In this document: in pieces, positions 5,082 to 64,000 of the stretch
How the letters are laid out: every line of letters starts with the position of its first letter
Numbering within the stretch: position 1 is the first letter of the stretch
Assembly: GCA_963802145.1 (NCBI GenBank)
Contig: CAWDHN010000006.1
Coordinates: forward strand, 7,434 to 71,433
Length of the DNA: 64,000 bases
Direction: 5' to 3'
Source of the DNA: an uncultured Rikenellaceae bacterium
GTDB taxonomy: Bacteria; Bacteroidota; Bacteroidia; Bacteroidales; VadinHA17
Program-made: the position numbers and the translations under genes
The notes under the pieces: generated by a model
What the model was told of the DNA's origin: nothing
What the model saw: the letters and a program-made list of their open reading frames with translations, nothing else
The model's database searches: none

Positions 5082-8000
5082 TTACTCAAGGTTGATGCTC
5101 AGTCCGAGCCCGCGCAGTTCATGCAGGAGCACGTTGAGCGACTCAGGGATGCCCGGCATGGGCATCGGTTCACCCTTGACAATAGCCTCGTATGCCTTGG
5201 CTCTACCTATCACGTCGTCAGACTTGATGGTGAGTATCTCCTGGAGAATATGCGCCGCGCCGAATGCTTCCAGCGCCCATACCTCCATCTCTCCGAACCT
5301 CTGGCCTCCGAACTGTGCCTTACCTCCGAGAGGCTGCTGGGTGATGAGCGAGTAGGGCCCTATCGAACGGGCGTGCATCTTGTCATCAACCATATGGCCC
5401 AGCTTGAGCATATATATCATCCCCACGGTGGCCGGCTGGTCAAACCGTTCGCCGGTACCGCCGTCATAGAGATAGGTGGTGCCGTTACGCGGTATACCTG
5501 CCTTTTCCGTCAGGTCATTGATCTGCGATTGCTTCGCACCGTCGAAGATCGGTGTCGAGAATTGCATCCCCATCTCTTTGCCTGCCCATCCCAGGACAGT
5601 CTCATAAATCTGTCCGAGGTTCATCCTGGAAGGCACACCGAGCGGGTTAAGAACGATATCCACAGGCGTACCGTCAGCAAGGAAGGGCATGTCCTCGGCA
5701 CGGACTATCTTGGCAACGATACCCTTGTTACCGTGGCGTCCGGCCATCTTGTCTCCCACCCGTATCTTGCGCTTCTTGGCAATATAGACCTTGGCCAGCC
5801 TTACGATACCTGCGGGCAGCTCATCACCGATGGTGATGTTGTACCTCTTCCTCTTGTATACACCGTCAATCTCCTTGTACTTGATGATATAGTTGTGAAG
5901 GAGCTGTTTGATACTGTCGTTCTTCTTCTTGTCAGTGGTCCACTTGTTGGGGTTGATGTTCAGGAAGTCAATCTCCTGGAGCTGCTTCAGCGTGAACTTA
6001 GCTCCCTTGGGGATGACGTCGACGTTGAGGTAATCCTTTACGCCCTGCGACGTCTTGCCGTTAACAAGTATGAAGAGCTTGTCAACCAGCCTTGCCTTGA
6101 GATCGTCTGCCGTTCGGTTGAAGTCGGCGTCAATCTTGTCAAGCAGAGGTTTCTCGGCAGTCTTGGCCTTCCGGTCCTTGATAGCCCTGGTAAACAGTTT
6201 CTTGTCAATGACCACGCCTTCGAGCGACGGTCCGGCCTTGAGTGAAGCATCCTTCACGTCACCGGCCTTGTCTCCGAAGATAGCCCTGAGGAGCTTCTCC
6301 TCAGGTGACGGGTCTGATTCACCCTTGGGTGTGATCTTGCCGATGAGTATGTCTCCCGGCCTGATCTGTGCACCTATGCGTATAAGTCCGTTCTCGTCGA
6401 GGTTCTTTGTTGCCTCTTCGCTGACGTTGGGGATATCGGAGGTAAGCTCTTCCATCCCGCGCTTGGTGTCGCGCACCTCCAGGAGGTACTCGTCAATGTG
6501 CACCGAGGTGAAGACATCTTCCTGTACCACTCTCTCGCTGAGCACGATGGCATCCTCGAAGTTGTATCCCTTCCATGGCATGAATGCCACCTTGAGGTTA
6601 CGCCCGAGAGCCAGTTCGCCGTTCTTGGTGCCGTACCCTTCGGTAAGCACCTGTCCCTTGACAACCTTCTCACCCTTCTTTACTATGGGTATGAGGTTGA
6701 TGGTGGTGTTCTGGTTGGTCTTATGGTATTTGGGCAGCGTGTAGCGCCTGACGTCGTCGTCAAAGCTCACGAACTTCTCTTCGTCGGTCCTGCTGTACCT
6801 TATCACGATCTCGTTGGAGTCAACAAACTCCACCACGCCGTCGCCTTCGGCAACGATCAGGATCCTTGAGTCTTTTATAACCTGTGCTTCGAGGCCGGTG
6901 CCCACTATCGGAGCCTCGGGCCTTACCAGCGGTACTGCCTGGCGCATCATGTTCGATCCCATGAGCGCGCGGTTGGCATCGTCATGCTCAAGGAAGGGGA
7001 TCAGTGATGCGGCTATGGAGGCGATCTGGTTGGGCGCCACGTCCATCATCTGTACCTTCGTGACCTCCTCGTAGGGATAGTCTGCACCCAGCCTCGACTT
7101 GGCCCTTGGGTTGGTGAAGGTGCCGTCATCATTCAGCGGAGCGTTGGCCTGTGCCACGGTGAGGTACTCCTCGTCCTCGGCGGTGAGCCACCTGACGGTT
7201 TCATTGTTCAGGTCTACCTTGCCCTCAACCACGTCGCGGTAGGGTGTCTCAATGAAGCCCAGCGTGTTTATCTTGGCATAGACGCAGAGCGATGAGATAA
7301 GGCCGATGTTCGGACCTTCAGGCGTCTCTATGGGGCAGAGACGTCCGTAGTGCGTATAGTGTACGTCTCGTACCTCGAATCCGGCACGTTCGCGTGAAAG
7401 ACCGCCCGGGCCCAGGGCTGAGAGGCGGCGCTTGTGCGTCATCTCCGCCAGCGGGTTGGTCTGGTCCATGAACTGTGACAGCTGGTTGGTGCCGAAGAAC
7501 GAGTTGATGACAGATGAGAGCGTCTTTGAGTTGATAAGATCGACGGGGGTGAATACCTCGTTGTCTCTTACGTTCATGCGTTCGCGTATGGTACGGGCCA
7601 TGCGGGCGAGACCGACACTGAACTGTGCCGAGAGCTGTTCACCCACGGTGCGTACCCTCCTGTTGCTCAGGTGGTCAATGTCATCGACATCGGTCTTCGA
7701 GTTGATGAGCTCGATAAGATAACGGATGATGGCGATGATATCCTCGCGGGTGAGGATCTTGGTGTCCATGCCAATGTCGAGCTTCAGCTTGCGGTTTATC
7801 CGGAAGCGTCCTACCTCTCCAAGGTCATAGCGCTTGTCTGAGAAGAAGAGCTTGTCAATGACATCGCGGGCGGTGGCCTCATCAGGCGGCTCGGCGTTGC
7901 GCAGCTGCCTGTAGATGTATAGTACAGCCTCTTTCTCGGAGTTGCAGGGGTCTTTCTGCAGTGTGTTGTATATGATGGCGAAGTCAGAGAGGCTCATATC

Positions 8001-8891
8001 CTCGCGGTGAAGCAGGATGGATTTTGCCCCTGAGTCAACTATCAGGTCAACATGGTCATTCTCAATGACCGTCTCGCGGTCGAGAACCACCTCGTTACGC
8101 TCAATGGAGACAACCTCACCGGTATCCTCGTCAACGAAATCCTCAACCCAGGTGCGCAGCACCCTGGCTGCCAGCTTGCGGCCGACCAGTTTCTTGACGC
8201 TGACCTTCGAGACCTTGTGTTCCTCTGCGAGGTTGAAGATCTCAAGGATATCCTTGTCGCCCTCGAAGCCGATGGCCCTGAGAAGGGTTGTTACAGGAAG
8301 CTTCTTCTTCCTGTCGATGTAGGCGTACATCACGTTGTTGATGTCGGTGGCAAACTCGATCCATGATCCCTTGAAAGGTATGATTCGTGCTGAATAGAGT
8401 TTGGTGCCGTTGGCGTGTATGCTCTGCCCGAAGAAAACCCCCGGTGACCTGTGAAGCTGTGAGACGACAACCCTCTCTGCTCCGTTGATGACGAAGGTGC
8501 CACGCTCGGTCATATAGGGGATGACACCCAGGTATACATCCTGAATGACGGTGTCAAAATCCTCATGTTCGGGGTCAGTGCAGTAAAGCTTTAGTTTTGC
8601 CTTCAGAGGAACGCTGAAGGTCAGTCCTCTCTCGATACACTCATCAATGGTGTAACGGGGAGGGTCAATTGAATAGTCCAGGAACTCGAGCACGAAGTTG
8701 TTCCTGGTGTCGGTGATGGGGAAGTTCTCCATGAAGACCTGATAAAGGCCCTCTTTCCTCCTGTTCTCGGGTGTTGTGCCGAGCTGGAAAAACTCGGCAA
8801 AAGATTTTAACTGAATCTCAAGAAAGTCAGGGTATTCAAGCTGTTCCTTCTTGGAGGCGAAACTTATGCGTTCGATATTTTTTGAGGACAT
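5082..8891 (-). CDS. rpoB: DNA-directed RNA polymerase subunit beta
   Basis: ORF with typical beta-subunit blocks ([26 protein letters not shown]). The track start at 8927 is a TTG that overlaps the rplL-rpoB attenuator T-tract. The ATG at 8891 ([16 protein letters not shown]) fits Bacteroidota rpoB N-termini better. Confidence 0.97.
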
Positions 8892-10655: not shown

Positions 10656-11096
10656 TTATTTACCGGGGAATGCACCTGTTACGGTGATGCCCATACTTCT
10701 GGCCGTGCCAGCCACCATCTTCATCGCGGATTCGAGGGTAAAGCAGTTTAAGTCCTGCATCTTATCCTCTGCAATAGTCTTCACCTGGTTCCATGATATT
10801 GATGCCACCTTGTTGCGGTTGGGCTCTGGTGAGCCTTTCTTCACTTTGGTAGCCTCAATGATCTGAACTGCAACAGGAGGGGTCTTTGTGACAAAATCAA
10901 AAGATTTGTCATTGTATACGGTGATGATCACCGGTATGACCTTACCTGCCTTGTCCTGTGTCCGGGCATTGAACTGTTTGCAAAACTCCATGATATTCAC
11001 ACCTTTGGAACCCAGTGCGGGTCCTACGGGTGGAGATGGATTGGCTGCTCCGCCTTTAATCTGTAATTTGATTAATCCAGCAACTTCTTTTGCCAT
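10656..11096 (-). CDS. rplK: 50S ribosomal protein L11
   Basis: 146 aa containing [23 protein letters not shown], the L11 signature. Confidence 0.97.
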
Positions 11097-15369: not shown

Positions 15370-16482
15370 TCATTTCAAAACTTTTGATGAAATAAATTCA
15401 TAATCGTTGCCCGCAGCGCCCGGGGAGGGCCTTACATAGGGAGCCAGACGCTCAGCCTGCTGCGTGCTGATGATCTTGTTGCCGACCATCGACCCCAGCG
15501 TCAGAGGGGGATCAGTGAGTGTCCTGAACCTGCTTATCAGCCTTGCGGTTTCATAACCCACATAGGGATGGCGTGCAAGATCACCGAAGGAAACGCTGTC
15601 GAGGAGCAGGGGCGCGACGGAATCAAAGGTCAGTGTCAACATGGGGGTTATCAGGCTGACGACAGAGCTGTCGAGGCCATATACCTCCCTGAGCTGGTCT
15701 GTTGCGACAAAACCGCCAAGCAGTGCGCGGTACTTTATTATCCTCGCCGAGAGTACCGGTCCGATGCCCGGCAGGCTCTCCAGCTCCTCTGCACTGCACC
15801 TGTTAAGATCGATAAGCACCACCGGTGACTCCCCTGGCGCCCCCTCTGCAGGAGTCCCACGCCCGGATGACGGGGAATACGCTGACTGAGTCCCACGCCC
15901 GGATGACGGGGAATACGCTGCCGGAGCCCCATGCCCGGATGACGTGGAGTACCGGTCAGCAGGCCTTGCTTCAGGAAAGTACCTGTCAGCCCTCCCGGCT
16001 CCCTCTGCCGGAGTGGTCGCCGACCCGTACGATACCTTTCCGGCAGGATCCTCTGCAATAATAATATACGGACCAAGGCGTGCGGCTGTTGATGAGTCTA
16101 TCCCGTAAACCCTGGCCAGATCTTCAGGCCGCCGGAACCTTGCACCGCTGTTACGGTAGTTTATAAGCGTGCCTGCCTGCTTCCCGGTAAGCCCCAGCCG
16201 CAGCAGGTCATCGTACGGGACCGTGTTGGGATCAAATGTGAAGAGCTCCGGGCTGAGGCTCGCATCTGCACCGTTGCCTGCCGTACTGTCGGCCGGTGCC
16301 GCGGGAGGCCTGAGATCGTCAGGCACCCTGCCGGGCCTGAGAGCGGTAAATCTCACCATTATAAGTACTATGAGCAATACCGACAGCAGGTACGTACCCC
16401 GCCTCTCCCGGCGGTCAAAACCGAATAACCCGGCAGCGATCTTCCTGAATGGCTTCACATCTGATACAGCAAGAGACAGCAC
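15370..16482 (-). CDS. ComEA-like helix-hairpin-helix DNA-binding protein with a low-complexity repeat linker
   Basis: 370 aa with one N-terminal TM helix and HhH motifs (LTGKQAGTLINYR; LESLPGIGPVLSARIIKYR). The central linker carries the repeat YSPSSGRGT. Confidence 0.75.
   Translation of the reverse strand: MLSLAVSDVKPFRKIAAGLFGFDRRERRGTYLLSVLLIVLIMVRFTALRPGRVPDDLRPPAAPADSTAGNGADASLSPELFTFDPNTVPYDDLLRLGLTGKQAGTLINYRNSGARFRRPEDLARVYGIDSSTAARLGPYIIIAEDPAGKVSYGSATTPAEGAGRADRYFPEARPADRYSTSSGHGAPAAYSPSSGRGTQSAYSPSSGRGTPAEGAPGESPVVLIDLNRCSAEELESLPGIGPVLSARIIKYRALLGGFVATDQLREVYGLDSSVVSLITPMLTLTFDSVAPLLLDSVSFGDLARHPYVGYETARLISRFRTLTDPPLTLGSMVGNKIISTQQAERLAPYVRPSPGAAGNDYEFISSKVLK
15854..15961. repeat. 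36-bp tandem repeat, 3 units, inside the ComEA-like CDS
   Basis: Units at 15854-15889 and 15890-15925 are nearly identical (gtcccacgcccggatgacggggaatacgctg...). The third unit is diverged. They encode the repeats (A/Q)SAYSPSSGRGT. Confidence 0.9.
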
Positions 16483-16520
16483 AAGTTATGCAAAAAAGAA
16501 ATCCGTGTCAAGAGCTGAGA

Positions 16521-16631
16521 GATTTGCGAACTGCGATTTGCGATTTGCGAATGGGGTGTTTGGCTTGAGATTTGCGATTTGGGATCTGGGTATTTTTAAA
16601 ATCGGCAATCGAAAATCTTAAATCGCAAATC
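16521..16631 (-). repeat. Heptad-hairpin intergenic element, copy A (full element with an internal insertion)
   Basis: It starts at the base after the TAG stop (16632-34) of the OMP gene. Read on the minus strand: GATTTGCGATTTAAGATTTTCGATTGCCGATTTT...CATTCGCAAATCGCAAATCGCAGTTCGCAAATC. The 12-mers 16569-16580 and 16620-16631 are perfect reverse complements. Confidence 0.85.
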
Positions 16632-18998
16632 CTAAAACGGATATCCAATCCCGATGACCATCGTCAGATCATCCCTGCGGTCAAAGGTGCCGTTCAGGGG
16701 TATCCACTTGGACCCCTCCGTGGCCATGGGATCGCGGAGTTTCATTCCAAAATCGGCCCTCAGGAGCACGAATTTGATGTCGAACCTTAATCCCGCCCCT
16801 GCCCCTACAGCGATATCGTCAAGGAAGGTATCAAACCTGAACTGGCTGCCGGGTCTGTCCTCATCAGGCTTTACGGTCCATATATTGCCCACATCAACAA
16901 ACGTTGCACCCTCAAGTATCCAGAAGAGCTTGAACCGGTATTCGATGTTGGCCTCCAGTTTCATGTCGGAAGTCAGGTTGATGAATGTACTCTCCTCGGG
17001 CATGACATAGGAGCCGGGACCGAGGGTCCGTACCACCCACGCCCTGATATCATTGGAGCCGCCACCGAAATACTGCTCCTCGAAGGGCATGACCTTTGAG
17101 TTCCCGTAGGCCCATCCTACGCCGGCATACCACCTGTAGACGATACTGCTTGCATCATTGAACCTGTAATTATACGCAGCATCCACCTCTGCCTTGATGA
17201 ATTGCGCAAAGGGCTGCCCGAAGAGGTGGTATGTACCGTCTGAAGCCTTCTCCGCGTTACCCAGGGAGTAAAACATGTTGAGCAGGTTACCGGCGATATC
17301 AAGTCCGAGGCGTATGTTCCAGTAATCCTTTGACTTAGGGATCAACTGGTTGTTGAAGACATAATCGTACCGTCCGCCCACAATCCTGACGTCGCGGTAA
17401 GAAGAGGCAAGGTATGAGGTGGTATCAATCATCGCCTGGTATTCGGGATCAACATAATGCATCTTGACCACATTGAACGACAGTGGAATGATATTGAATT
17501 TCGTGCGTTTGTTGCCAATCCACGAGTAGCCGAGGGATATATTGGCGACTGAGCGCGCGTAGACCGGCACCATCTGGAAGTTATAACCCGCCTGAAATAC
17601 CGTTCGGGGGTCATGGTCGCGGATAAACTTCTCCTTTTCGGGGATTGGCAAAAGGAATTTTGGCAGCCTGAGATTGGCTTCAAAGCCGTACTGCTGTATA
17701 TTCTCGAATCCTGCAGACTCGTCGTTGACAGATTCATATGCCCCCTGCAGCTTCAGGCTGAAGACCTCTGCGCCTCCGAAAAGGCTTTTGTTCTGATATA
17801 TCAGGTTCAGTGCTCCGCCAAGGTTACCTCCCCAATTTGTTGTACCTTCGAGCTCAACGGTGAATGACTGCCTCATCAGGGGAGTGAGCTGAATGATGCA
17901 GTCGAGCATGCCCACATCTCTCCTTTCACCGGTAATGCCTTCTGCATCGATGTATGACACATTAACAAGCCTGTGGTTCTTGAGATCGGCCAGGTGAGTT
18001 TCCGTCTGCCTGGCATTTGTCTGGCTGAACCACGCCCCGGGTGCGACATAGAGTGCCTGGGTCAGCACCTCGGGCTTGACCAGCTGCCTGCCGGGCGGTG
18101 CGACGAAGTGGATCCCCTTGTAAAAAGTTGTGTCAAAGGTCATGGTGTATGCCTCCCCTGCCGTGAGTGACAGACTGGGATCAAAGTCAGGAAAGACATA
18201 TACATCCCTTACCCGGTACATCCGGTGGTTGCTGTATTCCGGCCGGCCCTTGCTGTCCAGGGTGCTCCTTAGGGTAACGACATACTGTACAATGACCTGG
18301 TGGTTCATCTGCGTACTGTCAATACGGAAATAGATATTCTCCGACGAGAAGGTGAAAAAACCCAGGTCCCTTATGAAGAGTTCCAGTCTCTGGCGCTCAC
18401 GCTGGAGAAGGTCTACATCGTATATCATCCCCCTCTTCACGGTGCAGTTCGACGTGTCCATCATCACGAAGGTGGAAAGGATAGTATCCTGAATATCATA
18501 CTGTACGCTGGCTATTGTATAGGGTCTGCCGGGGTCAACGGCATACTGTACCCTGGCCTCTCTCTTTTCGGTCTTCACCGTGTCTGCGACCCTGGCATTG
18601 AAAAACCCCTTTGACCAAAGGTAGCTCTCTATCTGTCCGGCTGATCTGTCTGCCGCTGCGGGATCAAATACCACCGGCTCCTCGCCGATCCTTCTCAGCC
18701 ACCCGTGGGGCCACTTGCTCTTCTCAATATTTGAAAGGTTATAGAGCCCGAGGTGGAACCTGGCGCCAAAGATCTTCTTGTTTGGCTGTTGCCGGAGATA
18801 AGGTTTTATCGCACTCTTGCTGACCGTTGATGGCAACGGCACGCTGCTCTCTTTCAGCACAATCACGTTGCTGTTCAGGAGCAAGTCGTCTCTTGGGACA
18901 TATTTTGTGGGGTTGCAGGAGGCTACCGTAAAAATAATGATCACCAGCAGAAACAGTTTGGGAGCAGTAATTTTTATATTTGTTCTCTGATGGATCAA
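16632..18998 (-). CDS. BamA/TamA (Omp85) family outer membrane protein, lipoprotein-type signal
   Basis: Long ORF with a beta-barrel-like C-terminus ending in F. The track start (GTG at 19067) overlaps the divergent trmH gene and a -7 box. An in-frame TTG at 18998 gives (M)IHQRTNIKITAPKLFLLVIIIFTVASC. The start position is an inference. Confidence 0.75.
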   Translation of the reverse strand: MIHQRTNIKITAPKLFLLVIIIFTVASCNPTKYVPRDDLLLNSNVIVLKESSVPLPSTVSKSAIKPYLRQQPNKKIFGARFHLGLYNLSNIEKSKWPHGWLRRIGEEPVVFDPAAADRSAGQIESYLWSKGFFNARVADTVKTEKREARVQYAVDPGRPYTIASVQYDIQDTILSTFVMMDTSNCTVKRGMIYDVDLLQRERQRLELFIRDLGFFTFSSENIYFRIDSTQMNHQVIVQYVVTLRSTLDSKGRPEYSNHRMYRVRDVYVFPDFDPSLSLTAGEAYTMTFDTTFYKGIHFVAPPGRQLVKPEVLTQALYVAPGAWFSQTNARQTETHLADLKNHRLVNVSYIDAEGITGERRDVGMLDCIIQLTPLMRQSFTVELEGTTNWGGNLGGALNLIYQNKSLFGGAEVFSLKLQGAYESVNDESAGFENIQQYGFEANLRLPKFLLPIPEKEKFIRDHDPRTVFQAGYNFQMVPVYARSVANISLGYSWIGNKRTKFNIIPLSFNVVKMHYVDPEYQAMIDTTSYLASSYRDVRIVGGRYDYVFNNQLIPKSKDYWNIRLGLDIAGNLLNMFYSLGNAEKASDGTYHLFGQPFAQFIKAEVDAAYNYRFNDASSIVYRWYAGVGWAYGNSKVMPFEEQYFGGGSNDIRAWVVRTLGPGSYVMPEESTFINLTSDMKLEANIEYRFKLFWILEGATFVDVGNIWTVKPDEDRPGSQFRFDTFLDDIAVGAGAGLRFDIKFVLLRADFGMKLRDPMATEGSKWIPLNGTFDRRDDLTMVIGIGYPF

Positions 18999-19070: not shown

Positions 19071-19844
19071 ATGATCACCCGAAATCAGGCAAAAATGATA
19101 CTCTCACTGCAGAAGAGAAAGGTAAGGGAGGAGAACTCCCTCTTTGTCATCGAGGGTGATAAACTGGTTCGTGAGTATATCATGGCCGGTAACAGGGTAT
19201 CGCTTCTGGCAGGAAAGCCCGAGTGGATCGACGGTGAGCCTGAGGCGGTGATTGCGGGGGCAGATGAGATAGTCACTGTCAGCTATGAAGAGCTCCGGCG
19301 CATCAGCTCGCTGAAGACACCGCACAATGTGCTGGCCCTGGCGCCCATGGCAAAAGGCGATTACTCTGATCATCTCCTTACCGGGAGAGTCACTCCTGTG
19401 CTCGAGTATGTTCAGGACCCCGGGAATCTTGGAACAATAATACGTATTGCCGCCTGGTTCGGCATGTCAAACATTGTCTGTTCGCCCGACTGTGTCGACT
19501 TTTACAATCCGAAAGTGATACAGGCGACCATGGGGGCATTCATGCACGTCAGTGTATGGTACCGGCCACTGGAATCGTTTCTGGGGAAGGCAGTGACTGA
19601 TGGGATTCCGGTCTACGGGGCTACCATGGACGGGCGTTCGATATATGACGCTGATATCGGCGGTGAAGGCATTATTCTGTTTGGAAACGAATCGAGAGGT
19701 ATCTCCGATAAACTGCTTGGCTATGTGACCCGGCACATCACCATCCCCGGCCCCCCCAGGCCTCTGGCAGGAATTGAGTCTCTGAATGTAAGCATGGCCG
19801 CGGCCATCGTCTGTTCCGAATTTGCAAGGCGGAAACGTAGCTGA
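19071..19844 (+). CDS. TrmH/SpoU-family RNA 2'-O-methyltransferase
   Basis: Motifs DPGNLGTIIRIAAWFG, ILFGNESRGIS and ESLNVSMAAAIV. The likely start is the ATG at 19071 (MITRNQAK); the track starts at 19062. Confidence 0.88.
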   Translation: MITRNQAKMILSLQKRKVREENSLFVIEGDKLVREYIMAGNRVSLLAGKPEWIDGEPEAVIAGADEIVTVSYEELRRISSLKTPHNVLALAPMAKGDYSDHLLTGRVTPVLEYVQDPGNLGTIIRIAAWFGMSNIVCSPDCVDFYNPKVIQATMGAFMHVSVWYRPLESFLGKAVTDGIPVYGATMDGRSIYDADIGGEGIILFGNESRGISDKLLGYVTRHITIPGPPRPLAGIESLNVSMAAAIVCSEFARRKRS

Positions 19845-19852
19845 GAGGGACA

Positions 19853-19969
19853 GACTTCAGTCTTCAGTCTTCAGTCTTCAGTCCTCAGTCCTCAGTCTTG
19901 TCAATAGGCCTAACCATCTGTTTATTAATTCTTAATTCCTGCGACTGCCGACTGCTGACTGCCGACTGG
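19853..19969. repeat. Inverted (CAGTCNN)n heptamer arrays filling a convergent intergenic region (element F)
   Basis: The left array at 19853-19899 is (CAGTCTT)3(CAGTCCT)2CAGTCTT. The right array at 19939-19969 is CTGCGACTGCCGACTGCTGACTGCCGACTGG, the reverse complement of (CAGTCNN)4. Confidence 0.85.
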
Positions 19970-27131: not shown

Positions 27132-27215
27132 AATTGCGATTTAAGATTTTCGATTGTCGATTTAAAAAACATTCGCAAATCGCAAATCGCAAATCGCAAA
27201 TCGCAAATCGCAAAT
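27132..27215 (+). repeat. Heptad-hairpin intergenic element, copy B (archetype)
   Basis: It starts at the base after the TAA stop (27129-31): AATTGCGATTTAAGATTTTCGATTGTCGATTTAAAAAACATT followed by (CGCAAAT)x6 at 27174-27215. The left arm is four degenerate NNGATTT heptads complementary to the right array. Confidence 0.9.
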
Positions 27216-27244: not shown

Positions 27245-28324
27245 ATGTACGACCACAAATATCTGTTAGAATTCACCACTGAACTCTTCATGCGCATAGG
27301 CTGCAGCCGCGATGATGCCGGCGCTGTTGCCTCGGTGCTCATTGCTGCCGAGCTGCGCGGACACTCATCGCACGGCATGATAAGGATCAAGGAGTACTAT
27401 GACCTATGGAAGACAGGGCGGGTGAATGTAACCCCGGAGGTTAAGGTAGTTCACCAGACCCCTTCTACCGCTGTGGTCGACGGCGACAGGTGCTTCGGGA
27501 TGGTGGCAGGCATGAAGTCCATGAAGCTGGCTATTGAAAAGGCTGCGACCACTGGTACTGGGTGGGTGGCGACAAAAAACTCAAACCACTTCGGGATAGC
27601 CGGGTACTATGCCATGATGGCTCTTGAGCATGATATGGTAGGGATATGCGTCACTAACGCCAACCCCCTGGTGGTGCCCACCTGGTCGGTGAGCCGGTAC
27701 CTCGGTACCAATCCCCTTGCCGTGGCTGTACCGGCACTGCAGGAACCTCCCTTCATTGCCGATTTTGCCACTACCCCTATCGCCCGGGGAAAGCTCGCCG
27801 TATCCGAAAAGAAGGGCGAGAAGGTGCTGCTGGGATTTGTGCAGGATGCCGAGGGCAACCCGTCGGATGATCCTGGCATTCTTCGGCGTGGAGGCGGCAT
27901 GCTGACCCTTGGAGGCGATCGTCCCCACGGGAGCCATAAGGGTTACTGTATGGCAGCCGTGGTAGACATATTCAGTTCTGTCTTCAGCGGTGCCAACTTC
28001 GGGCCTTTTGTGCCACCAAGCGTGGCCTACCTGCCTGTGCCCGAAAACCAGCCGGGTGAGGGAACAGGACATTTCTTCGGGGCCATGCGCATCGATGCCT
28101 TCAGGCCGGCGGATGAATTCAAGAGCTCAATGGACCAGTGGATAAAAACATTTCGTAGTGCAAAACCGATAAAGGGGGAGACAAGGGTACTGATACCCGG
28201 TGATCCTGAACGGGAAGCAGAGGAGCAGAACAGGAAATCCGGAATTAAGCTGGTTCCTGCAGTGGTTGATGACCTCCGCACGCTGGCCACCACACTGGGA
28301 GTCGAATTCCGGGAAAGTGTCTGA
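27245..28324 (+). CDS. Ldh_2 family (malate/L-lactate/sulfolactate-type) dehydrogenase
   Basis: 359 aa containing GHSSHGMIRI, SNHFGIAGYY and GSHKGY, which are characteristic of the Ldh_2 family. Confidence 0.8.
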   Translation: MYDHKYLLEFTTELFMRIGCSRDDAGAVASVLIAAELRGHSSHGMIRIKEYYDLWKTGRVNVTPEVKVVHQTPSTAVVDGDRCFGMVAGMKSMKLAIEKAATTGTGWVATKNSNHFGIAGYYAMMALEHDMVGICVTNANPLVVPTWSVSRYLGTNPLAVAVPALQEPPFIADFATTPIARGKLAVSEKKGEKVLLGFVQDAEGNPSDDPGILRRGGGMLTLGGDRPHGSHKGYCMAAVVDIFSSVFSGANFGPFVPPSVAYLPVPENQPGEGTGHFFGAMRIDAFRPADEFKSSMDQWIKTFRSAKPIKGETRVLIPGDPEREAEEQNRKSGIKLVPAVVDDLRTLATTLGVEFRESV

Positions 28325-28440
28325 CGATGCCGGCGGCCGGTTAGCCACTGTCTGACATTCCTTATCCTCTTCGAGGAATTTTATTGGATTATAACCGTCT
28401 TTGCTACAATACTTTATGCGCTACGCGCAATTTTTCACCA

Positions 28441-28533
28441 CTGCTGACTGCCGTCCCGACGCACTTCGTGGCCGGGATTGAGCCTCCTCCTACGTCGGAG
28501 TCTCAAACTGCCGGCTGAGGACTTACCCTTCCC
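28441..28533 (+). repeat. Mosaic intergenic element G: heptads, conserved 60-nt two-hairpin core, GGCTGAGGAC module
   Basis: CTGCTGACTGCC, then the core 28453-28512 (GTCCCGACGCACTTCGTGGCCGGGATTGAGCCTCCTCCTACGTCGGAGTCTCAAACTGCC), then GGCTGAGGACTTACCCTTCCC. The core aligns with the reverse complement of 54203-54260. The last module aligns with 56663-56684. Confidence 0.8.
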
Positions 28534-28606
28534 TGCAATCTGGCTGCTCGCTGTAATGACCCACCGGGTCATTACTTAACGCTCGCCCCTCGACTGGTCT
28601 GCTGTC

Positions 28607-29350
28607 TCAGAAAACGAATCCCTGCCTCCGGATGACCTCAAGGTATTTTGCAGAGAAGAATTCGTTGTCAGCCTTCTTGTAACGAACATCAGTGAAGACC
28701 TGGGCAAGAGTTTTCTTGTTGTTCTCCGCAATGAACTGAAGGGAGTCATCACGGGCCTCCTTAGCCTTGTATATATCGTCAATCACTGACGGAGAATAAT
28801 CGCGATACCTCTCATAATGCACCACGGCCTCAAGCGGCAGCCTGTCAGGCTGCCCGGGTACCAGCGCCGGCCAGCCCACAGTTACTGTGGCGACAGGCAC
28901 CACCCCTCCTGGCAGCTCCAGAATATCGATGATCTTGTCAGCATTGTAGGTGACAGTACCCAGGTAGCATATACCCAACCCCTCCTCCTCGGCAGCATTG
29001 CAAACTGTCTGTGCGACAAGCAGTGCATCGATGGCAGCCGTCATGAAAGAGAGGAAATTGTCATAGCCGGGCTCCGCCTCGCGCTGCCGGCACCATCGGT
29101 TGAACCTGTTGAAGTCGGCACAGAAGGTCAGTATCACCGGCGCCTCCGTCACCATCGGCTGATTGAAGTGTGCCGGTGCCAGTCTTTTCTTCATCTCAGC
29201 ATCACGAGTCACTATAATGCTGTAAACCTGCATATTGCCCGTGGTTGAAGCCCTCGTGCCCGCAGTAAGAATCCGCTCAAGAAGCCTGCTCTCTATCTCC
29301 CTGTCCTCATACTTCCTGACTGTCCTCCTGGTAAAATATGTGCTGTTCAT
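28607..29350 (-). CDS. Nitroreductase-family NAD(P)H oxidoreductase (NfsA-like)
   Basis: 247 aa. The N-terminal RRTVRKY motif and overall length and pattern are typical of the nitroreductase fold. Confidence 0.78.
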   Translation of the reverse strand: MNSTYFTRRTVRKYEDREIESRLLERILTAGTRASTTGNMQVYSIIVTRDAEMKKRLAPAHFNQPMVTEAPVILTFCADFNRFNRWCRQREAEPGYDNFLSFMTAAIDALLVAQTVCNAAEEEGLGICYLGTVTYNADKIIDILELPGGVVPVATVTVGWPALVPGQPDRLPLEAVVHYERYRDYSPSVIDDIYKAKEARDDSLQFIAENNKKTLAQVFTDVRYKKADNEFFSAKYLEVIRRQGFVF

Positions 29351-32821: not shown

Positions 32822-32905
32822 AAGTCATAAAGTCTTGAAAATTTGCGATTTGCGATTTGCGATTTGCGATTAAATCGACAATCGAAAATCTTAAATCGAA
32901 AATTC
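32822..32905 (-). repeat. Heptad-hairpin intergenic element, copy C
   Basis: Read on the minus strand, beginning 12 nt after the msrBA stop: GAATTTTCGATTTAAGATTTTCGATTGTCGATTTAA followed by (TCGCAAA)x4. On the plus strand this is (ATTTGCG)x4 at 32841-32868. It ends in TAAGTCATAAAGTCT nonamer-like units. Confidence 0.88.
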
Positions 32906-44081: not shown

Positions 44082-46187
44082 ATGCATGATATTCTTGAAC
44101 TGAGCGAAATGCTTGTTCCCGAATTGAGGGAAATAGCGAAGCAGCTCAAAATTAAGAGGGCAGAGCTCCTCAAGAAACAGGATCTCATATATAAGATCCT
44201 TGATCAGCAGGCCATAGATGCTGCTGACACCCGTAAAACAGCCAGAATTGAAGGCCCGTCGCCCGACAGGCAGGCGGACCGCTCCGGTCAGCAGCAGAAA
44301 CAGCCTGACAGGCCCAGGCCACCGCAGCAACAGCAGAAACCCAGGGGGCCGAAGCCCCAGGGGCAGCAGCAGAGGCCGCCGCAACCGCAGGACCAGCGGC
44401 AGCAGAAGCCTCAGCAGCCACAGGGACCGAAGCCAAACCAGCCTCAGCAGCAATCGCAGCCGCAATTGCCTGGCCAGCCACAGCAGCAGAACCAGCAGAG
44501 GCCACCGCAACAGAACCAGCAGCAACAGAGCCAGCCGCAGCCCGGACAACCCCAGCAGGGACCGGCACAGGGTCAGCCTCAGAGACAGCCGCAGCAGCAG
44601 AGGCCGCAACAGCCGCAGAAGTGGAACCAAAACCGCAATAAACGGCCGCGCACCTACAATAATGACCAGCCGGATCAAAGAAGGCCTGATGGTGATCGTC
44701 AGCCCCAGCAGCAGCAATCAATCCCTGCTGCTCCCGGAAGAGAGACGCCTCAGACTCAGTCACAGTCACAGCAGCCGCAGCAGAACCAACAGCAGCAGAA
44801 CCAGCCGCAATATAGCCAGCCGCAGCAGAACCATCCGCAGCCTCAGTCGCAGCCCGACAGGCCCATGTTTGCTTCCGAACAGGTCAATGAGCATGATCAG
44901 GATCTGCTCCGATTCAGCGAACCTGAAAATGATACACACATCATTGAAGCGGCGGCAACATCCGATGCATCGGTTATACTTCCTCCTGCCGCTCCTGAAG
45001 CCGTACCCGGCCACCATGATATTCCGGAGCCTGTAAGGGAAGAGAGAAAGGAAAGAGCATACGATTTTGAAGGTATAGTAGCCAACACCGGTGTACTGGA
45101 GATAATGCCCGACGGTTACGGGTTCCTCCGTTCTCCGGATTACAACTACCTCAGCTCACCTGATGACATATACGTATCACAGTCGCAGATAAAGCTCTTC
45201 GGGCTTAAGACCGGAGACACCATCAGGGGTACTATCCGCCCGCCGCGTGAGGGAGAGAAGTATTTCCCGCTCATAAAGGTTGAAGAGATCAACGGCCGCA
45301 CTCCTGATTTCATCCGTGACAGGGTGCCGTTCGATTACCTCACTCCGCTTTTCCCAAATGAAAAATTCACGCTCTGCAAACCCGGTGAAGGAAACCTGTC
45401 AGTGCGTATCGTTGACATGTTCTGCCCGATAGGCAAGGGACAGCGCGGCCTGATAGTGGCACAGCCCAAGACAGGTAAGACGATCCTCCTTCAGGATATT
45501 GCCAACGCAATTGCCAAATTCCATCCGGAGGTCTACCTGATGATCCTCCTCATAGATGAACGTCCAGAAGAGGTGACTGAGATGGCTCGCAACGTCAACG
45601 CCGAGGTCATCGCCTCTACCTTTGACGAACCTGCCGAGAGGCACGTGCGTATCGCCACCATAGTTCAGGAAAAGGCCAAGAGGCTTGTCGAGTGCGGTCA
45701 TGACGTGGTCATACTCCTTGACTCCATCACCCGCCTTGCAAGAGCATTCAATACCATAGCTCCCGCATCAGGCAAGGTTCTCTCGGGCGGTGTTGATTCC
45801 AACGCCCTGCATAAACCGAAGAGGTTCTTCGGCGCAGCACGCAACATTGAGAACGGAGGCTCACTAACCATCATCGCCACCGCCCTCACAGACACCGGGT
45901 CAAAAATGGATGATGTCATCTTTGAAGAGTTCAAGGGTACGGGTAACATGGAGCTCCAGCTCGACCGCAAGCTGTCAAACAGGAGGATATTCCCTTCCAT
46001 AGACATACCTGCCTCAAGCACACGGCGCGAAGACCTGCTGCTCGACAGGAACATGCTGAGCAAGATATGGATACTCCGCAACTACCTCACCGACATGAAC
46101 TCGGTGGAAGCCATGGAATTCCTGCGTGACCGCATAACCCAGACACGCTCCAATGAGGAGTTCCTTATTTCGATGAACAGCGAATAA
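44082..46187 (+). CDS. rho: Transcription termination factor Rho with a Q/P-rich insertion of about 280 aa
   Basis: Rho_N ([18 protein letters not shown]), a low-complexity insert at aa 46-325, a CSD/OB domain ([14 protein letters not shown]), and an ATPase domain ([17 protein letters not shown]). Confidence 0.97.
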
Positions 46188-52772: not shown

Positions 52773-54128
52773 ATGAGAATAGTAATTGCCGGCGCTGGAG
52801 AGGTGGGGACCCATCTGGCCAAGATGCTCTCGCAGAGCGAACATGAGATCATTCTGATAGACTCCGAGGCTGAGCGTCTCAAACCTGTTGATGCAGCCCT
52901 TGACGTTCTTACTTTCGAGGGTTCGGCTACCTCGCTCAACCTTCTCCGGGAGGCCATCAAGAAGCATACCGACCTCTTTATAGCCGTTGCGCACTATGAG
53001 GACACGAACATCACTTCCGCCGTCCTGGCCAAGAAACTGGGCGCCCGTAAGGTGATAGCACGCATTGACAATATGGAATACCTTGAGCGTGCCAACAAGG
53101 AGTTCTTCCGGGAGATGGGTGTTGATCACCTGATCTACCCGGAGCTTATTGCCGCCAAAGAGGTGATAAGCCTGCTGAAGGAGACCGGCACCACCGAGTT
53201 CATGGATTTTGCCGGCGGGCTGCTGTCGCTCTACGTACAGAAGCTCGAGAAGAACGCCCCTGTCCTCAATCGCAGCCTCGAGGAGGTTAGCAACACCCTG
53301 GGATCAATCATAAAGTACCGTGCAGTGGCAATCAAGAGACATGAGCTGACCATCATTCCAAGGGGCAAGGAGGAGTTTCACGAAGGTGACCTGGCGTTTG
53401 TCATCTCCACCCGTGACGGGATAGATGACATGATGAAGTTCTCAGGCAAGCGCAACACTCAGGCCAAGAGCATCATGGTGCTCGGAGGAAGCCGTATCGG
53501 GAGGCATATAGCGCTCAACCTGCAGCACGACTGCCAGGTGAAGCTGATCGATTATAACATGGAGAAATGCCGCGACCTGGCTGAGGAGCTCGAGGAGACA
53601 CTGGTGATACACGGTGACGGAAGGAACGGTGACCTGCTTGCCGAGGAGGGTCTTCAGCATATGGATGCCTTCGTTGCCGTGACTGGCAACTCCGAGACAA
53701 ACATACTCTCATGCCTCCTGGCAAAGAAGATAGGTGTGATGAAGACCATTGCCGAGGTGGAGAACATGGAATACATCAATCTTGCCGAGAACTCAGGGAT
53801 TGACACCATCATCAACAAGAAGATAGCCACTGCCAGCCGTATCTTCCGACATACCATGAACCCCAACGTCACCCAGGTCAAGATGATGACCGGCACCGAG
53901 GCTGAGGTCATTGAATATAATGTCCCGGAGGGTGCGCGCATCACCAGCGGACCGCTGAAGCTGATAGACTTTCCCAAGGATGCAATCGTCGGTGGCGGGA
54001 TTCGCGACTACAAGCCATATATTGCAACCGGAGACACCCTTATCAGGGCCGGAGACAAGGTGGTGGTCTTCGCCCTGCCGTCAGCCTTTGACAAGCTGAA
54101 CAAGTTTTTCAATTCGGAAAAGAGGTAA
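52773..54128 (+). CDS. trkA: Trk system potassium uptake protein TrkA
   Basis: 451 aa with two Rossmann NAD-binding modules (IVIAGAGEVG; IMVLGGSRIG), each followed by a TrkA_C region. Confidence 0.93.
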   Translation: MRIVIAGAGEVGTHLAKMLSQSEHEIILIDSEAERLKPVDAALDVLTFEGSATSLNLLREAIKKHTDLFIAVAHYEDTNITSAVLAKKLGARKVIARIDNMEYLERANKEFFREMGVDHLIYPELIAAKEVISLLKETGTTEFMDFAGGLLSLYVQKLEKNAPVLNRSLEEVSNTLGSIIKYRAVAIKRHELTIIPRGKEEFHEGDLAFVISTRDGIDDMMKFSGKRNTQAKSIMVLGGSRIGRHIALNLQHDCQVKLIDYNMEKCRDLAEELEETLVIHGDGRNGDLLAEEGLQHMDAFVAVTGNSETNILSCLLAKKIGVMKTIAEVENMEYINLAENSGIDTIINKKIATASRIFRHTMNPNVTQVKMMTGTEAEVIEYNVPEGARITSGPLKLIDFPKDAIVGGGIRDYKPYIATGDTLIRAGDKVVVFALPSAFDKLNKFFNSEKR

Positions 54129-54282
54129 GAAGGCTGAAAGTCCTTAAAGTCTGTAAGGTCCATAAAGTCCGTAAAGTCCGTAAAGTCGAAAGTCTGAAAA
54201 TTGCAAATTTGAGCCTGCGATCTAGGAGCAGGATAAATCCCGGACACGCAGTGTCGGGACGCAAATCGAAAATCGCAAATCA
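54129..54282. repeat. Mosaic intergenic element D: nonamer array, two-hairpin core (reverse orientation), AAATCGC heptads
   Basis: It fills the whole trkA/tsaC convergent gap. Nonamers (RTAAAGTCY) run 54137-54196. The core is at 54203-54260. The sequence GCAAATCGAAAATCGCAAATCA at 54261-54282 runs into the tsaC stop codon. Confidence 0.85.
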
Positions 54283-54894
54283 CAATTCCAGCACTCCCCT
54301 GCCCTGCCTTAGTATGACGGGTTCCGGGCCTGTGCAGTCAACCACGGTTGAGGGTTCGTTGCTCCCGAAACCACCGTCAACCACCAGGTCGGCAAAATCA
54401 TCATACTTCTCATGAATAAGCTCGGGATCAGTTATATACTCAATGATCTCGTCATCCTCATGTATGGAGGTAGTCACCAGTGGCCTGCCCAGATCGTTGA
54501 CTATTGCCAGTGTGATGCTGTTGTCAGGTATGCGGATCCCCAAGGTCTTCTTGCGGTGCCTGAACATGGCCGGTATCTGGTTGTTCGCAGGTACAATGAA
54601 TGTGAATGGCCCCGGCAGGTTGCGCTTCAGCAGCCTGAAGAGGTTGTTGTCATGAATGACCGTGTATTCGGAGAGCTGACTCATTGACGAAAAGATCATC
54701 GACATGTCGGGGTTGCCCGGATTGAGGCCTTTGAAACGCGCGATCTTCTCAATGGTCTTTCCGGCTTTAATGTCGCAACCCATGGCATATATGGTGTCAG
54801 TGGGGTATATGACGATACCTCCCTGCTCAAGAACAAAGGTGACCCTTCGTATATGATCGGCATTGGGATTCTCCGGATAGATCTTCAGTATCAT
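54280..54894 (-). CDS. tsaC: L-threonylcarbamoyladenylate synthase (TsaC/YrdC type)
   Basis: 204 aa with YrdC-domain motifs (VIYPTDTIYAMGCD, PGPFTFI, TTSIH). Confidence 0.88.
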   Translation of the reverse strand: MILKIYPENPNADHIRRVTFVLEQGGIVIYPTDTIYAMGCDIKAGKTIEKIARFKGLNPGNPDMSMIFSSMSQLSEYTVIHDNNLFRLLKRNLPGPFTFIVPANNQIPAMFRHRKKTLGIRIPDNSITLAIVNDLGRPLVTTSIHEDDEIIEYITDPELIHEKYDDFADLVVDGGFGSNEPSTVVDCTGPEPVILRQGRGVLEL

Positions 54895-54952
54895 CGCTTC
54901 TTTAAAGTGACGGCAAATATATAAACTTCTTGCGAGAGGGGGGTAAAAAAAA

Positions 54953-55049
54953 GGGTAAGCTACTCACATCGCACCGCTACAACCTTCTACCCTTGCTGTC
55001 TTCCAACCCTGGGGGAGTTCAAAGGGAGCTGGTCGTATGAGACTTACCC
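54953..55049 (-). ncRNA. ffs: Signal recognition particle RNA (4.5S type)
   Basis: The minus strand reads GGGTAAG...CCCCCAGGGTTGGAAGACAGCAAGGGTAGAAGG...CTTACCC. The terminal helix is closed by GGGTAAG/CTTACCC. The GGAAG.CAGCAAGG.AG segment matches the conserved SRP domain IV motif (E. coli GGAAGGAAGCAGCCAAGGCAG). A canonical promoter lies upstream. Confidence 0.8.
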
Positions 55050-55053
55050 CGCA

Positions 55054-55085
55054 CAAAAATACGAACTTTTAAGCCCTGCTCCAAA
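55054..55085 (-). promoter_or_regulatory. Bacteroidota-type promoter of SRP RNA
   Basis: The minus strand has TTTG (55085-82), a 20-nt spacer, then TATTTTTG (55061-54), ending 4 nt before the first G of the RNA helix. Confidence 0.6.
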
Positions 55086-55163: not shown

Positions 55164-55709
55164 ATGGAACAGAAAAGATCGATCTGGAAAGAGACCCTGA
55201 ACTATGGCATCATACTTGGTCTGATCGCATTGGGCTTCTCCCTGCTAACTTATATGTTTGATCTCACATTCAAGACCTGGATCCTATGGCCAAGTCTCCT
55301 GATCACAATTCTCGTTCTCTACTTTCTGCTGCGCTCATACCGTGATCATTACAATAACGGGTATATCACCTACGGCAAATCTGTCGGCGCCGGCGTCGTG
55401 ATAAACGTCTACGCAGCTATCATAACCGCTCTGTATATTTATGTCCTATATGCATTTATTGATCCGGGACTGGTTGAAAAGTCGCTTGCCGTTCAGGAAG
55501 AAAGATTCCTTGCCAAGGGAATGCCTGAGGCCGCCATCGATCAGGCACTGGCTATGCAGGCCAAGATGATGAAGCCATGGTTCACCGCCCTCATGTCAAC
55601 CCTGGGCAGCGTGTTTTACGGACTTATTCTCTCACTGATCGTATCACTGTTTATTGTTAAAAAGGGCAATCCTCTCCTTGATGAGGTGGCAGAAGAACCA
55701 AAAGAATAA
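55164..55709 (+). CDS. DUF4199-family membrane protein
   Basis: 181 aa with 4 predicted TM helices. The organisation is as I recall for DUF4199, upstream of a GT2 gene. Confidence 0.6.
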   Translation: MEQKRSIWKETLNYGIILGLIALGFSLLTYMFDLTFKTWILWPSLLITILVLYFLLRSYRDHYNNGYITYGKSVGAGVVINVYAAIITALYIYVLYAFIDPGLVEKSLAVQEERFLAKGMPEAAIDQALAMQAKMMKPWFTALMSTLGSVFYGLILSLIVSLFIVKKGNPLLDEVAEEPKE

Positions 55710-56668: not shown

Positions 56669-56723
56669 GGACGTTACCCATCCCATTCGACAATCGCAAA
56701 TCGCAAATCGCAAATCGCAAATC
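56663..56723 (+). repeat. Mosaic intergenic element E (half element): GGCTGAGGAC module plus (CGCAAAT)x4
   Basis: GGCTGAGGACGTTACCCATCCC (56663-84, spanning the TGA stop of the GT2 gene), then ATTCGACAAT, then (CGCAAAT)x4 at 56695-56722. No complementary left arm is present. Confidence 0.8.
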
Positions 56724-61814: not shown

Positions 61815-62208
61815 GGGGCTGACCTGGTTTTGACAGCAAGCCGCGGTGGTATGTAAGCATGCAGAGTAGGGTGACGCATCTCTTTAACTTGTGTCACAAA
61901 ACAACAACAGGCGAGAATAACTACGCTCTTGCTGCGTAACTGAACTAAGTAGGTTATGCTTAATCCCGGCACAAGGTGCCGGGACGAGACGTTTCCCGGG
62001 CGGTGATGCCCAGTACCAACCCGATCAGGAAGCGCACGCAATTCAGGGATAGCCTGATGGTCTCTCCGGCCTGACGGTGAAATTAAAGGAGATAAGGTGT
62101 GATTCGGCTGTCTGCCACCTGGTCACACCCGACAATCAAGGCAGGATAAGCATGTAGAAAGCATATGGTCGCCTTGCCTGGACGCGGGTTCGACTCCCGC
62201 CAGCTCCA
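61815..62208 (+). ncRNA. ssrA: Transfer-messenger RNA (tmRNA)
   Basis: 5' GGGGCTGAC pairs with 3' CAGCTCCA. The T-arm is GGGTTCGACTCCC. The tag reading frame at 61910-61939 (GGCGAGAATAACTACGCTCTTGCTGCGTAA) encodes GENNYALAA, the Bacteroidota-type tag. Confidence 0.93.
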
Positions 62209-62228
62209 CGATCAAGCAGAAAACAAGC

Positions 62229-62254
62229 ACCCCCGAAAGGGGGTTTTTGTTTTT
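62229..62254 (+). terminator. Intrinsic terminator after ssrA
   Basis: ACCCCC-GAAA-GGGGGT followed by TTTTGTTTTT. Confidence 0.85.
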
Positions 62255-62581: not shown

Positions 62582-62616
62582 AGACTGCTTTCATGCAGTC
62601 TTTTCTTGCTTTTTTC
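62582..62616 (+). terminator. Terminator-like hairpin in the non-coding stretch
   Basis: AGACTGC-TTTCAT-GCAGTCT followed by TTTCTTGCTTTTTTC. Confidence 0.5.
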
Positions 62617-62680
62617 TGGAAGGTTTCTTATCTTTGTTTCAATCCATTATATATGGAGGTGGAGGGTTGTAAGGCCCTTG

Positions 62681-63928: not shown

Positions 63929-64000
63929 CCAATCCTCTCAATACCATCATCAAAACACGATAGCCTGATAAAGAAAGGATCTGAAGTCTCTGTCAGGGTT

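Follow-up and report, generated by a model that had tools for sequence, protein, structure and literature searches.

The window analysed here, a 64,000-nt stretch of DNA from an uncultured Rikenellaceae bacterium, contains two copies (c1 and c2) of a two-hairpin sequence that we interpret as an interspersed and probably mobile DNA repeat, the hairpins being the recognised structure. We put the probability of this interpretation at roughly 0.55. For the wider family, the best reading by analogy with known systems is that of palindromic units, like those of REP/BIME or of cyanobacterial small dispersed repeats (SDR), nested in Bacteroidales heptad microsatellites. The family is restricted to the lineage. 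Its precise ends in unrelated arrays and its relocation between sister species suggest a discrete unit that was inserted somehow, and the mosaics that its loci have in common, together with empty alleles that replace whole segments, show that array-mediated recombination also moves and removes the element.

Two copies in convergent gene gaps

The copies lie in two convergent gaps, as a preliminary description of this DNA had stated. The flanking genes, the copies and their flanks are as follows.

27245–28324 (+) and 28607–29350 (−): Ldh_2-family dehydrogenase and nitroreductase, bounding the convergent gap of locus 1 (282 nt)
28438–28452 (+): left flank of c1, heptads (C)CACTGCT GACTGCC
28453–28506 (+): c1, 54 nt, GTCCCGA...CTCAA, two adjoining palindromic units (CM R1 77 bits, E 1e-16)
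28454–28477 (+): palindromic unit 1 of c1 (PU1, hairpin 1 type a), foot TCCCG/CGGGA, inner CAC-TTC-GTG
28478–28506 (+): palindromic unit 2 of c1 (PU2, hairpin 2 type x), TTGAG-C-CTCC, loop TCCTACGTC, GGAG-T-CTCAA
28507–28513 (+): right flank of c1, heptad ACTGCCG, a direct repeat of the unit preceding the element
52773–54128 (+) and 54280–54894 (−): TrkA and Sua5/YciO-type genes, bounding the convergent gap of locus 2 (151 nt)
54130–54208 (−): right flank of c2, ATTTGCA ATTTTCA followed by a nonamer array (GGACTTTAC)n (TRF period 9, 5.7 copies)
54209–54260 (−): c2, 52 nt (CM R1 70.9 bits)
54209–54237 (−): hairpin 2 of c2, type y
54238–54259 (−): hairpin 1 of c2, type a'
54261–54279 (−): left flank of c2, heptads TTTGCGA TTTTCGA TTTGC, adjoining the stop codon TGA (54280–54282) of the Sua5-like gene

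A core of about 60 nt had been proposed for both copies. Aligned from end to end, 28453–28512 (+) and the reverse complement of 54203–54260 share 46 identities, with 12 mismatches and one 2-nt gap, and the global alignment score lies at z = 10.5 against shuffles. With c1 as a single query over the window, nhmmer returned c2 at E = 5.1e-5 and no other match. The observation holds, with a correction to the length of the core. The common sequence stops at CTCAA (28506 in c1, 54209 in c2), and the final 6 nt of the 60-nt core (ACTGCC in c1, ATTTGC in c2) duplicate the heptad unit of the locus. Since the heptad after CTCAA repeats the unit just before the element, we locate the core inside short tandem arrays. 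The flanks themselves differ between the loci as first described, with heptads, nonamers and the GGCTGAGGAC module recovered from the sequence and by TRF. The stretch ACTGCTGACTGCCG in the left flank of c1 is identical to 19951–19964, and c2 starts 20 nt past the stop codon of the Sua5-like gene.

The hairpin-1 pattern GTCCCGACN{5,12}CCGGGAT matches the c1 and c2 sites and no others in the window (0.00 matches expected). Neither nhmmer nor CM scans identified a third copy in the window, and a further 10 kb to its left held no copy. A weak match within the tmRNA gene (61945–61985) was judged to be due to chance (nhmmer E 0.06; CM 21 bits). The window encodes tRNAs in addition to this tmRNA, and a small SRP RNA of the Bacteroidales type at 54949–55056. 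Its tandem arrays are distributed by gap type as convergent 5/8, tandem 2 and divergent 0. Their units are ATTTGCG/CGCAAAT, CAGTCTT/GACTGCC and the nonamer GGACTTTAC, and several arrays are inverted and fold into long imperfect hairpins.

A family of paired palindromic units with invariant ends

We fetched orthologous loci through exact-protein matches and determined their identity to the window by blastn. The resulting family set holds about 12 distinct copies, all from the approximately 0.7 Mb of loci reached through window proteins. Full members measure 51–59 nt and consist of PU1 and PU2 side by side. PU1 (22–30 nt) has the foot YCCCGA...CGGGR and an interior that is variable but self-complementary. 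PU2 (29–31 nt) has the foot TTGAG...CTCAA, an inner stem of 4–6 bp and a loop of 5–11 nt. The hairpin types are distributed among the copies as follows.

Hairpin 1 type a (..CACTTCGTG..): c1, e1, m1
Hairpin 1 type a': c2
Hairpin 1 type b (ATCCGCC-AGCT-GGCGGAT): m2, m3, m5–m7
Hairpin 2 type x (CTCC/GGAG): c1, e1, e2, m1
Hairpin 2 type y (CCTGC/GCAGG): c2, m2, m3
Hairpin 2 type z (GACCC-TGC-GGGTC): m5–m7

These modules occur in the combinations a+x, a'+y, b+y and b+z. Solo units are represented by e2, a type-x PU2 (L065, 11952–11989), and by m4, whose two arms are of differing types; a regex scan of 11 sources found no solo PU1 or PU2 beyond those already known. The hairpin-2 loop TCCTA..TC had been presented as part of the shared structure. 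It holds for the window copies and varies in the family, other members of which have TCCTGCGTC, AACTGCGTC or CAATT.

Read 5' to 3', the element starts with (G)YCCCGA and terminates in CTCAA without variation over the approximately 12 copies, in three or four kinds of array. With a slash marking each junction, the transitions between array and element read ACTGCC/G..CTCAA/ACTGCC, ATTTGC/G..CTCAA/ATTTGC, ATTGTC/G..CTCAA/ATTGTC and TCTGAAG/G..CTCAA/TCTGAAG. Every copy sits exactly at an array unit boundary, in a single orientation relative to the unit. All copies are intergenic, downstream of genes and within tandem arrays of 7–8-nt units. The a+x type occurs with identical ends in ACTGCCG arrays (the window and L065) and in TCTGAAGG arrays (L052), and m1 has just two TCTGAAGG units around it and lacks an array to the left. 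The window holds 2 copies in 64 kb, and L052 holds 6 in 21 kb. In the latter, mosaics of about 250–300 nt are common to two different convergent gaps and run in the order arrays, b+z element, arrays, inverted y-type element, arrays.

Folding and base-pair changes

The claim that both window copies form the same two hairpins is borne out by folding as RNA and as DNA. The RNA folds of the 60- and 58-nt cores of c1 and c2 gave z = −1.5 and −2.5, and the DNA folds of the trimmed 54- and 52-nt elements gave z = −2.3 and −3.4. The stability of the full 93-nt interval is no better than that of shuffles (z = −0.6 and −1.2). The two-hairpin fold is common to all full family members, whose z values range from −2.3 to −4.9, and 9 of the 10 pairs of PU2 form in the fold of c1.

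Standard pairs fill 84% of the pair cells in the family CM alignment. Shuffles gave 80.7%, with 0 of 500 reaching 84%, and a control in which pairing partners were slid along the alignment gave at most 53.5%. Changes on both sides are present at four pairs, including T-A to C-G in the PU1 foot, which occurs in the b+z type, and C-G to G-C in PU2. The latter is the compensatory swap in hairpin 2 noted between the window copies; it recurs in the family alignment as C-G in six rows and G-C in four. The PU1 interiors CAC-TNC-GTG, ATA...TAT and ATCCGCC-AGCT-GGCGGAT are mutually unrelated, and each is self-complementary.

Stems disrupted without compensation had been named as evidence against a conserved structure, and such disruption is found in some members, while the majority of stems remain intact. 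A G-to-U change in c2 breaks an outer pair that is intact in other strains, and a T-to-C change in e1 breaks an inner pair. The chimeric solo PU2 m4 (L052, 11267–11304) has mostly unpaired arms and z = −0.2. An A.C mismatch in hairpin 1 of c1 corresponds to an A-T pair in the homologous copy e1 (L065). Across the family pairs, we found no strand-specific G.U signal.

Presence and absence among strains and relatives

The occupancy of the two loci and of the other regions covered is as follows.

Same species (L004–L016), about 99% identity: c1 at locus 1 in 8 of 8 covering contigs; c2 at locus 2 in 4 of 5; no copies elsewhere
Relative L028/L049/L063 (1.23-Mb contig), about 93% ANI: heptads only at loci 1 and 2; no copy in 62 kb
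Relative L065, about 91% ANI: locus 1 without the element; c1-type e1 and solo PU2 e2 in the gap between Tricorn protease and Ldh_2
Species D (L052–L057), about 80% ANI: two copies (m5, m4) at locus 1; six copies in 21 kb of L052
Species B (L039–L048), about 78%: Sua5–TrkA gap of 10 nt; no copies elsewhere
Species C (L058–L062), about 79%: Sua5–TrkA gap an unrelated 90 nt; no copies elsewhere

Within the species, the c2 site is filled in L012, L013, L014 and L016 and empty in L015, a strain with 98.8% identity to the window that has about 35 nt of heptads instead. The nonamers to the right of c2 are also missing from L013, L014 and L016. At locus 1, the empty allele of L049 contains one single ACTGCCG. 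In L065, e2 precedes e1, and the flanks are ACTGCC heptads like those of c1 in the window. Presence and position thus differ among strains and sister species, and at neither locus is the element conserved. The empty alleles of both loci are not clean excisions, as the neighbouring heptads differ too, so that gain or loss through recombination of the arrays is equally possible.

Exact-pattern scans of genome, metagenome and viral contigs returned matches that inspection and nhmmer marked as chance; the patterns demanded CCGGGATT together with CTCCT(A), which other family variants lack, and the scans are therefore uninformative on distribution. Plasmid sequences gave no blastn match to the element.

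Search for signatures of transposition

We identified no transposase in the window by Pfam, and the fetched loci contain just an IS110-family element (L006 and L038). Pfam lists for the window and the fetched loci include no Y1 or RAYT gene. The IS110-family element was considered as a mobiliser of the core and rejected: it has no sequence in common with the core and adjoins a separate repeat, box B (described below).

The preliminary description had also raised the possibility that the core is the terminal repeat of a known transposon. No transposon with the core as its end was found. Terminal inverted repeats (TIRs) spanning the element are absent, so that it is not a MITE: TCCCGAC, at the 5' end, and TTGAGAC, the 3' end read on the opposite strand, agree at just 4 of 7 bases; inverted ends, TTGAG/CTCAA, are a property of PU2 by itself. 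Direct repeats flanking the element are 7 nt (ACTGCCG, ATTGTCG, ATTTGCG/A) or 8 nt long (TCTGAAGG) and equal the local array unit. Since their length follows the array period, they may not be target-site duplications (TSD). The last letters of the left flanks are GCCG, TGCG, GTCG and AAGG; no tetra- or pentanucleotide is common to them beyond the final (C)G.

Transcript signals and orientation

At both loci, Rfam returned no relevant family either at the gathering threshold or at E ≤ 10, a search that had been proposed at the outset. A match to snR58 on the nonamers was dismissed as chance (12.9 bits, cutoff 70). Simple scans for promoter-like and terminator-like sites that would delimit a discrete transcript gave none at the element, and an intrinsic terminator was rejected because a U-tract is missing after every copy. 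The locus 1 gap contains two terminator-like hairpins with T-runs, both upstream of c1, and c1 may consequently lie outside the Ldh_2 transcript.

Orientation relative to genes is mixed. Copies in convergent gaps are sense to the nearer gene in six of seven cases, and the paired copies m6/m3 and m5/m4 each face their own gene; this bias might also reflect a role at the level of RNA. Tandem gaps hold four copies (m1, m7, e1 and e2), and each of these runs antisense to the genes on either side.

The choice originally offered was between a functional structured RNA and a mobile element. Presence and absence, relocation, precise ends and module shuffling favour a dispersed or mobile element. The Rfam result, the lack of orthologous conservation, the mixed orientation, the lack of transcript signals and the stem defects speak against an RNA gene, and the view that the element is a conserved structured RNA gene is not supported.

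Competing explanations

In the mechanism that we favour, the palindromic units would spread as DNA. Their hairpins would be kept through recognition, in extruded or single-stranded DNA, by a trans-acting enzyme or by a replication or recombination process. Array-mediated recombination would then copy entire mosaics from gap to gap, and any effects on adjacent mRNAs, such as REP-like protection of 3' ends, would be secondary. A more specific version, which we regard as speculative and improbable, is that the units are ultra-small mobile elements of about 25–30 nt, often paired, that integrate in a single orientation, exactly at heptad or octad unit boundaries and thus with an insertion specificity not described before, by means of a host or unlinked enzyme acting on extruded or single-stranded hairpin DNA. 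In that case, the heptad arrays might in part be products of repeated 7–8-bp duplications.

The units may instead lack mobility of their own and be by-products of, and passengers on, unstable heptad arrays, with a single or few origins. They would be copied, exchanged and lost through template switching or gene conversion between arrays with unit sequences in common, without a dedicated enzyme. This explanation, which we consider unlikely but worth retaining, accommodates the mosaics of about 250–300 nt common to different L052 gaps, the like ACTGCC flanks of c1 and e1 at different loci, the segment replacement, with no clean insertion, in both empty alleles, the swapping of unrelated palindromes at one site (28553–28575 and its L065 counterpart) and the flanking repeats whose length tracks the array period of 7 or 8 nt. 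However, homology-driven copying does not predict the identical ends of a+x elements in unrelated arrays (ACTGCCG versus TCTGAAGG), and the placement of m1 between just two TCTGAAGG units, where the left array is absent, and boundaries that are base-precise in three to four contexts likewise weigh against it. Somewhat less probable still is that the element acts in cis as an RNA structure of the 3' UTR, whether originally or by later recruitment. Its hairpins would keep 3' exonucleases off the upstream mRNA or influence termination or processing in the manner described for REP sequences, and its stems would be under selection as RNA. Every copy lies downstream of genes, c2 a mere 20 nt past the Sua5-like stop; sense orientation prevails in convergent gaps (6 of 7), where m6/m3 and m5/m4 face their own genes; and stems are mostly retained, with some double changes. 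Yet m1, m7, e1 and e2 are antisense to both neighbours, c1 is downstream of two terminator-like hairpins, the host genes lack the element in sister species, U-tracts and a strand-specific G.U signal are missing, and decayed copies persist. The two hairpins with their partly conserved pyrimidine-rich loop, and the one compensatory pair between the window copies, would also suit a free-standing small regulatory RNA gene in two paralogues, with the C/U-rich loop CUCCUA as seed. We hold this to be highly improbable, and it is largely refuted: neither an Rfam match nor flanking promoter- or terminator-like signals were found, the loop varies across the family, the element is missing at locus 1 from the relatives at 93% and 91% ANI and at locus 2 from the relative at 93% ANI, and it sits in repeat arrays in variable orientation.

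Relation to known repeat systems

We compared the family with several classes of small bacterial repeats. Like the REP/BIME sequences of Enterobacteria and Pseudomonas, the copies are short extragenic imperfect palindromes at the 3' ends of genes, with units in the REP size range of 20–40 nt, form mosaics with other short motifs, are species-restricted and vary in presence between strains. The neighbourhood of REP sequences is a target of IS110-family elements. Such an insertion is also present near our element, beside box B. PMC3116915 states, through its refs 41–42, that IS elements target REP sequences. The differences are substantial. The family heads are G(T/C)CCCGA and TTGAG, without a GTAG-type tetranucleotide; two unlike hairpins stand in tandem, in contrast to the inverted doublet of the same REP in REPINs; the units are embedded in heptad arrays, unlike those of BIMEs; there is no sequence similarity; and no RAYT gene, as in REPIN-RAYT systems, is present in the window or the fetched loci.

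The nearest parallel in architecture comes from cyanobacteria, in which degenerate heptanucleotide repeats (STRR-type) in the P6b element of the Nostoc tRNA-Leu intron pair into hairpins, and strains differ in the number of heptad units and in indels of non-heptad elements (PMC3488679). The resemblance to our family is one of architecture only: tiny hairpin repeats nested in heptamer arrays, with presence and absence among close relatives. The non-heptad inserts were reportedly named 'small dispersed repeats' by Elhai et al. in 2008 (Genome Res 18:1484) and are said to be 21–27 nt long. The elements described here differ in phylum (Bacteroidota versus Cyanobacteria), share no sequence similarity with them, occupy 3' intergenic gaps and not an intron as in Nostoc, and consist of units of 24–31 nt, usually paired to 51–59 nt, as opposed to 21–27 nt. 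We know of no mechanism that mobilises the cyanobacterial SDR, the only comparable system.

Heptamer arrays with the unit TAACTGA are on record from a small number of Bacteroidetes, Beggiatoaceae and Cyanobacteria. Most of them closely precede start codons, and a role in translation was proposed; in some Bacteroidetes, including Paludibacter, one gap can hold several heptamer types (MacGregor 2015, PMC4679880). Both those arrays and ours consist of intergenic tandem heptamers, and ours differ in lying downstream of stop codons, in having other units and in containing palindromic inserts.

Pneumococcal BOX elements are modular small intergenic repeats. BrickBuilt of P. gingivalis is a MITE with terminal inverted repeats and an internal minisatellite (PMC4596501). 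Our family resembles BOX and BrickBuilt in being small, non-coding, intergenic, modular and strongly structured, with strain-variable copies, and differs from BrickBuilt in that the tandem repeats lie outside the element and no TIRs span it.

PATEs, palindrome-associated elements that derive from IS200/IS605, are without TIRs and a proven TSD, carry similar subterminal hairpins at their two ends and go in 3' of a conserved tetra- or pentanucleotide, in one orientation relative to this flanking motif; the right end of IS608 is TCAA. Our elements likewise have no TIRs, no proven TSD, hairpins at their ends and one orientation, and their 3' end, ...TCAA, is like that of IS608. However, their hairpins are dissimilar and terminal, no spacer or guide separates hairpin 1 from the left end, no conserved target tetra- or pentanucleotide stands on the left and no Y1 transposase was seen. 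As a GTAG head, an inverted doublet, TIRs and a target tetranucleotide were all looked for and found to be absent, we do not assign the family to any named one.

If the interpretation as a mobile DNA repeat is correct, the copies would represent an undescribed palindromic mini-repeat family of uncultured Bacteroidales known from metagenome assemblies, of which one or more bear the label wastewater. The family would be tied to heptad microsatellites that change from strain to strain at about 99% identity. It would further provide a second, independent SDR-like case, with precise ends and a fixed unit phase as a handle on the movement of tiny repeats. Should the units be ultra-small mobile elements, they would be a Bacteroidota counterpart of the unexplained cyanobacterial SDR phenomenon. 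In practice, such gaps break assemblies and yield strain markers. Repeats of this kind can also mislead screens for non-coding RNA, since stem-preserving changes between paralogous copies mimic RNA covariation.

Neighbouring repeats in the locus 1 gap

The locus 1 gap contains further repeats next to c1.

28404–28432 (+): box B, a separate repeat family, CTACAATACTTTAT with the mini-hairpin GCGC-TAC-GCGC
28513–28552 (+): module G, a separate repeat, GGCTGAGGACTTACCCTTCCCTGCAATCTGGCTGC...
28553–28575 (+): perfect palindrome GTAATGACCC-ACC-GGGTCATTAC, without a U-tract

Box B lies outside the core, yet is part of the mosaic that makes up this gap; the IS110-family element of L006 and L038 is inserted next to it. 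Module G has a partial copy at 56663–56687 and two copies in L065. The hairpin at 28553–28575 is perfect and has no U-tract, as reported at first, and the same site in L065 holds an unrelated palindrome, TCCGCCAGCTGGCGGA.

Box B and an IS110-family element

We identified a second repeat family, box B, beside the two-hairpin element (a 51-59-nt repeat) at its window copy c1 and in related loci.

Window 28404-28432: box B
L006 (same species) 5845-5857, 5889-5901: box B
L038 9722-9734, 9774-9786, 11089-11101: box B

In box B, a conserved CTACAATACTTTAT box precedes a hairpin of 4-5 bp with a TAC or TAT loop and a covarying stem (GCGC/GCGC, CTCC/GGAG, TCGCC/GGCGA and ACCGC/GCGGT). An IS110-family element (331-aa DEDD transposase) ends ~22 nt from a box B in two different genomic places. 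This association suggests that box B is a target of the element.

Module G and its neighbouring palindrome

A third dispersed module, module G (GGCTGAGGAC(G)TTACCC(W)TCCC..TGCAATCTGGCTGC), also lies near c1.

Window 28513-28552, 56663-56687: module G
L065 (91%-ANI relative) 10788-10822, 19288-19300: module G

The window's second copy, at 56663, runs across the end of a glycosyltransferase gene (55709-56668), overlapping its stop codon. Module G is adjoined in the window by a palindrome (GTAATGACCC-ACC-GGGTCATTAC, 28553-28575) that the 93%-ANI relative also has at this position. The equivalent position in L065 (10770-10783) holds an unrelated palindrome, TCCGCCAGCTGGCGGA, which recurs in the 80%-ANI species as the interior of the type b form of hairpin 1.

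Variation in the c2 gap

The gap that contains c2, the window's other two-hairpin copy (gap 54129-54279), takes at least four forms within one species (98.8-99.3% identity; strain alignment).

Element with nonamers, as two forms that differ in the loop
Element without nonamers
Heptads only

Four substitutions separate c2 from its counterpart in strain L012, all inside hairpin 2.

Heptad arrays

Tandem heptad arrays are present in the window and also in relatives without the two-hairpin element.

Window 16519-16636, 19851-19968, 27132-27215, 32838-32905, 56687-56723: tandem heptad arrays
L040 (species B) 8166-8232; L064 3207-3256: tandem heptad arrays

Within the window, the arrays are distributed among convergent (5/8), tandem (2) and divergent (0) gaps. 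Their layout is frequently inverted, as (ATTTGCG)n...(CGCAAAT)n or CAGTCNN...GACTGNN, and inverted arrays form long hairpins with periodic mismatches. Arrays begin directly after stop codons.

Region downstream of tmRNA

Strain-variable DNA follows the tmRNA gene (region 61815-64000).

61815-62211: tmRNA gene
63407-63928: HTH_26 gene, with a 130-aa ORF upstream

The HTH_26 gene has no record in any other assembly; strain L012 encodes DUF6088/AbiEii genes in place of this gene and the 130-aa ORF. The region is probably an integration hot spot.

Repeats within genes

Repeats also occur inside coding sequences. Gene 15370-16482 contains 2.8 copies of a 36-nt repeat (15851-15952), and CAG/CAGCAGAAC-rich repeats (44477-44846) lie in the Rho gene (44082-46187), within its N-terminal portion.
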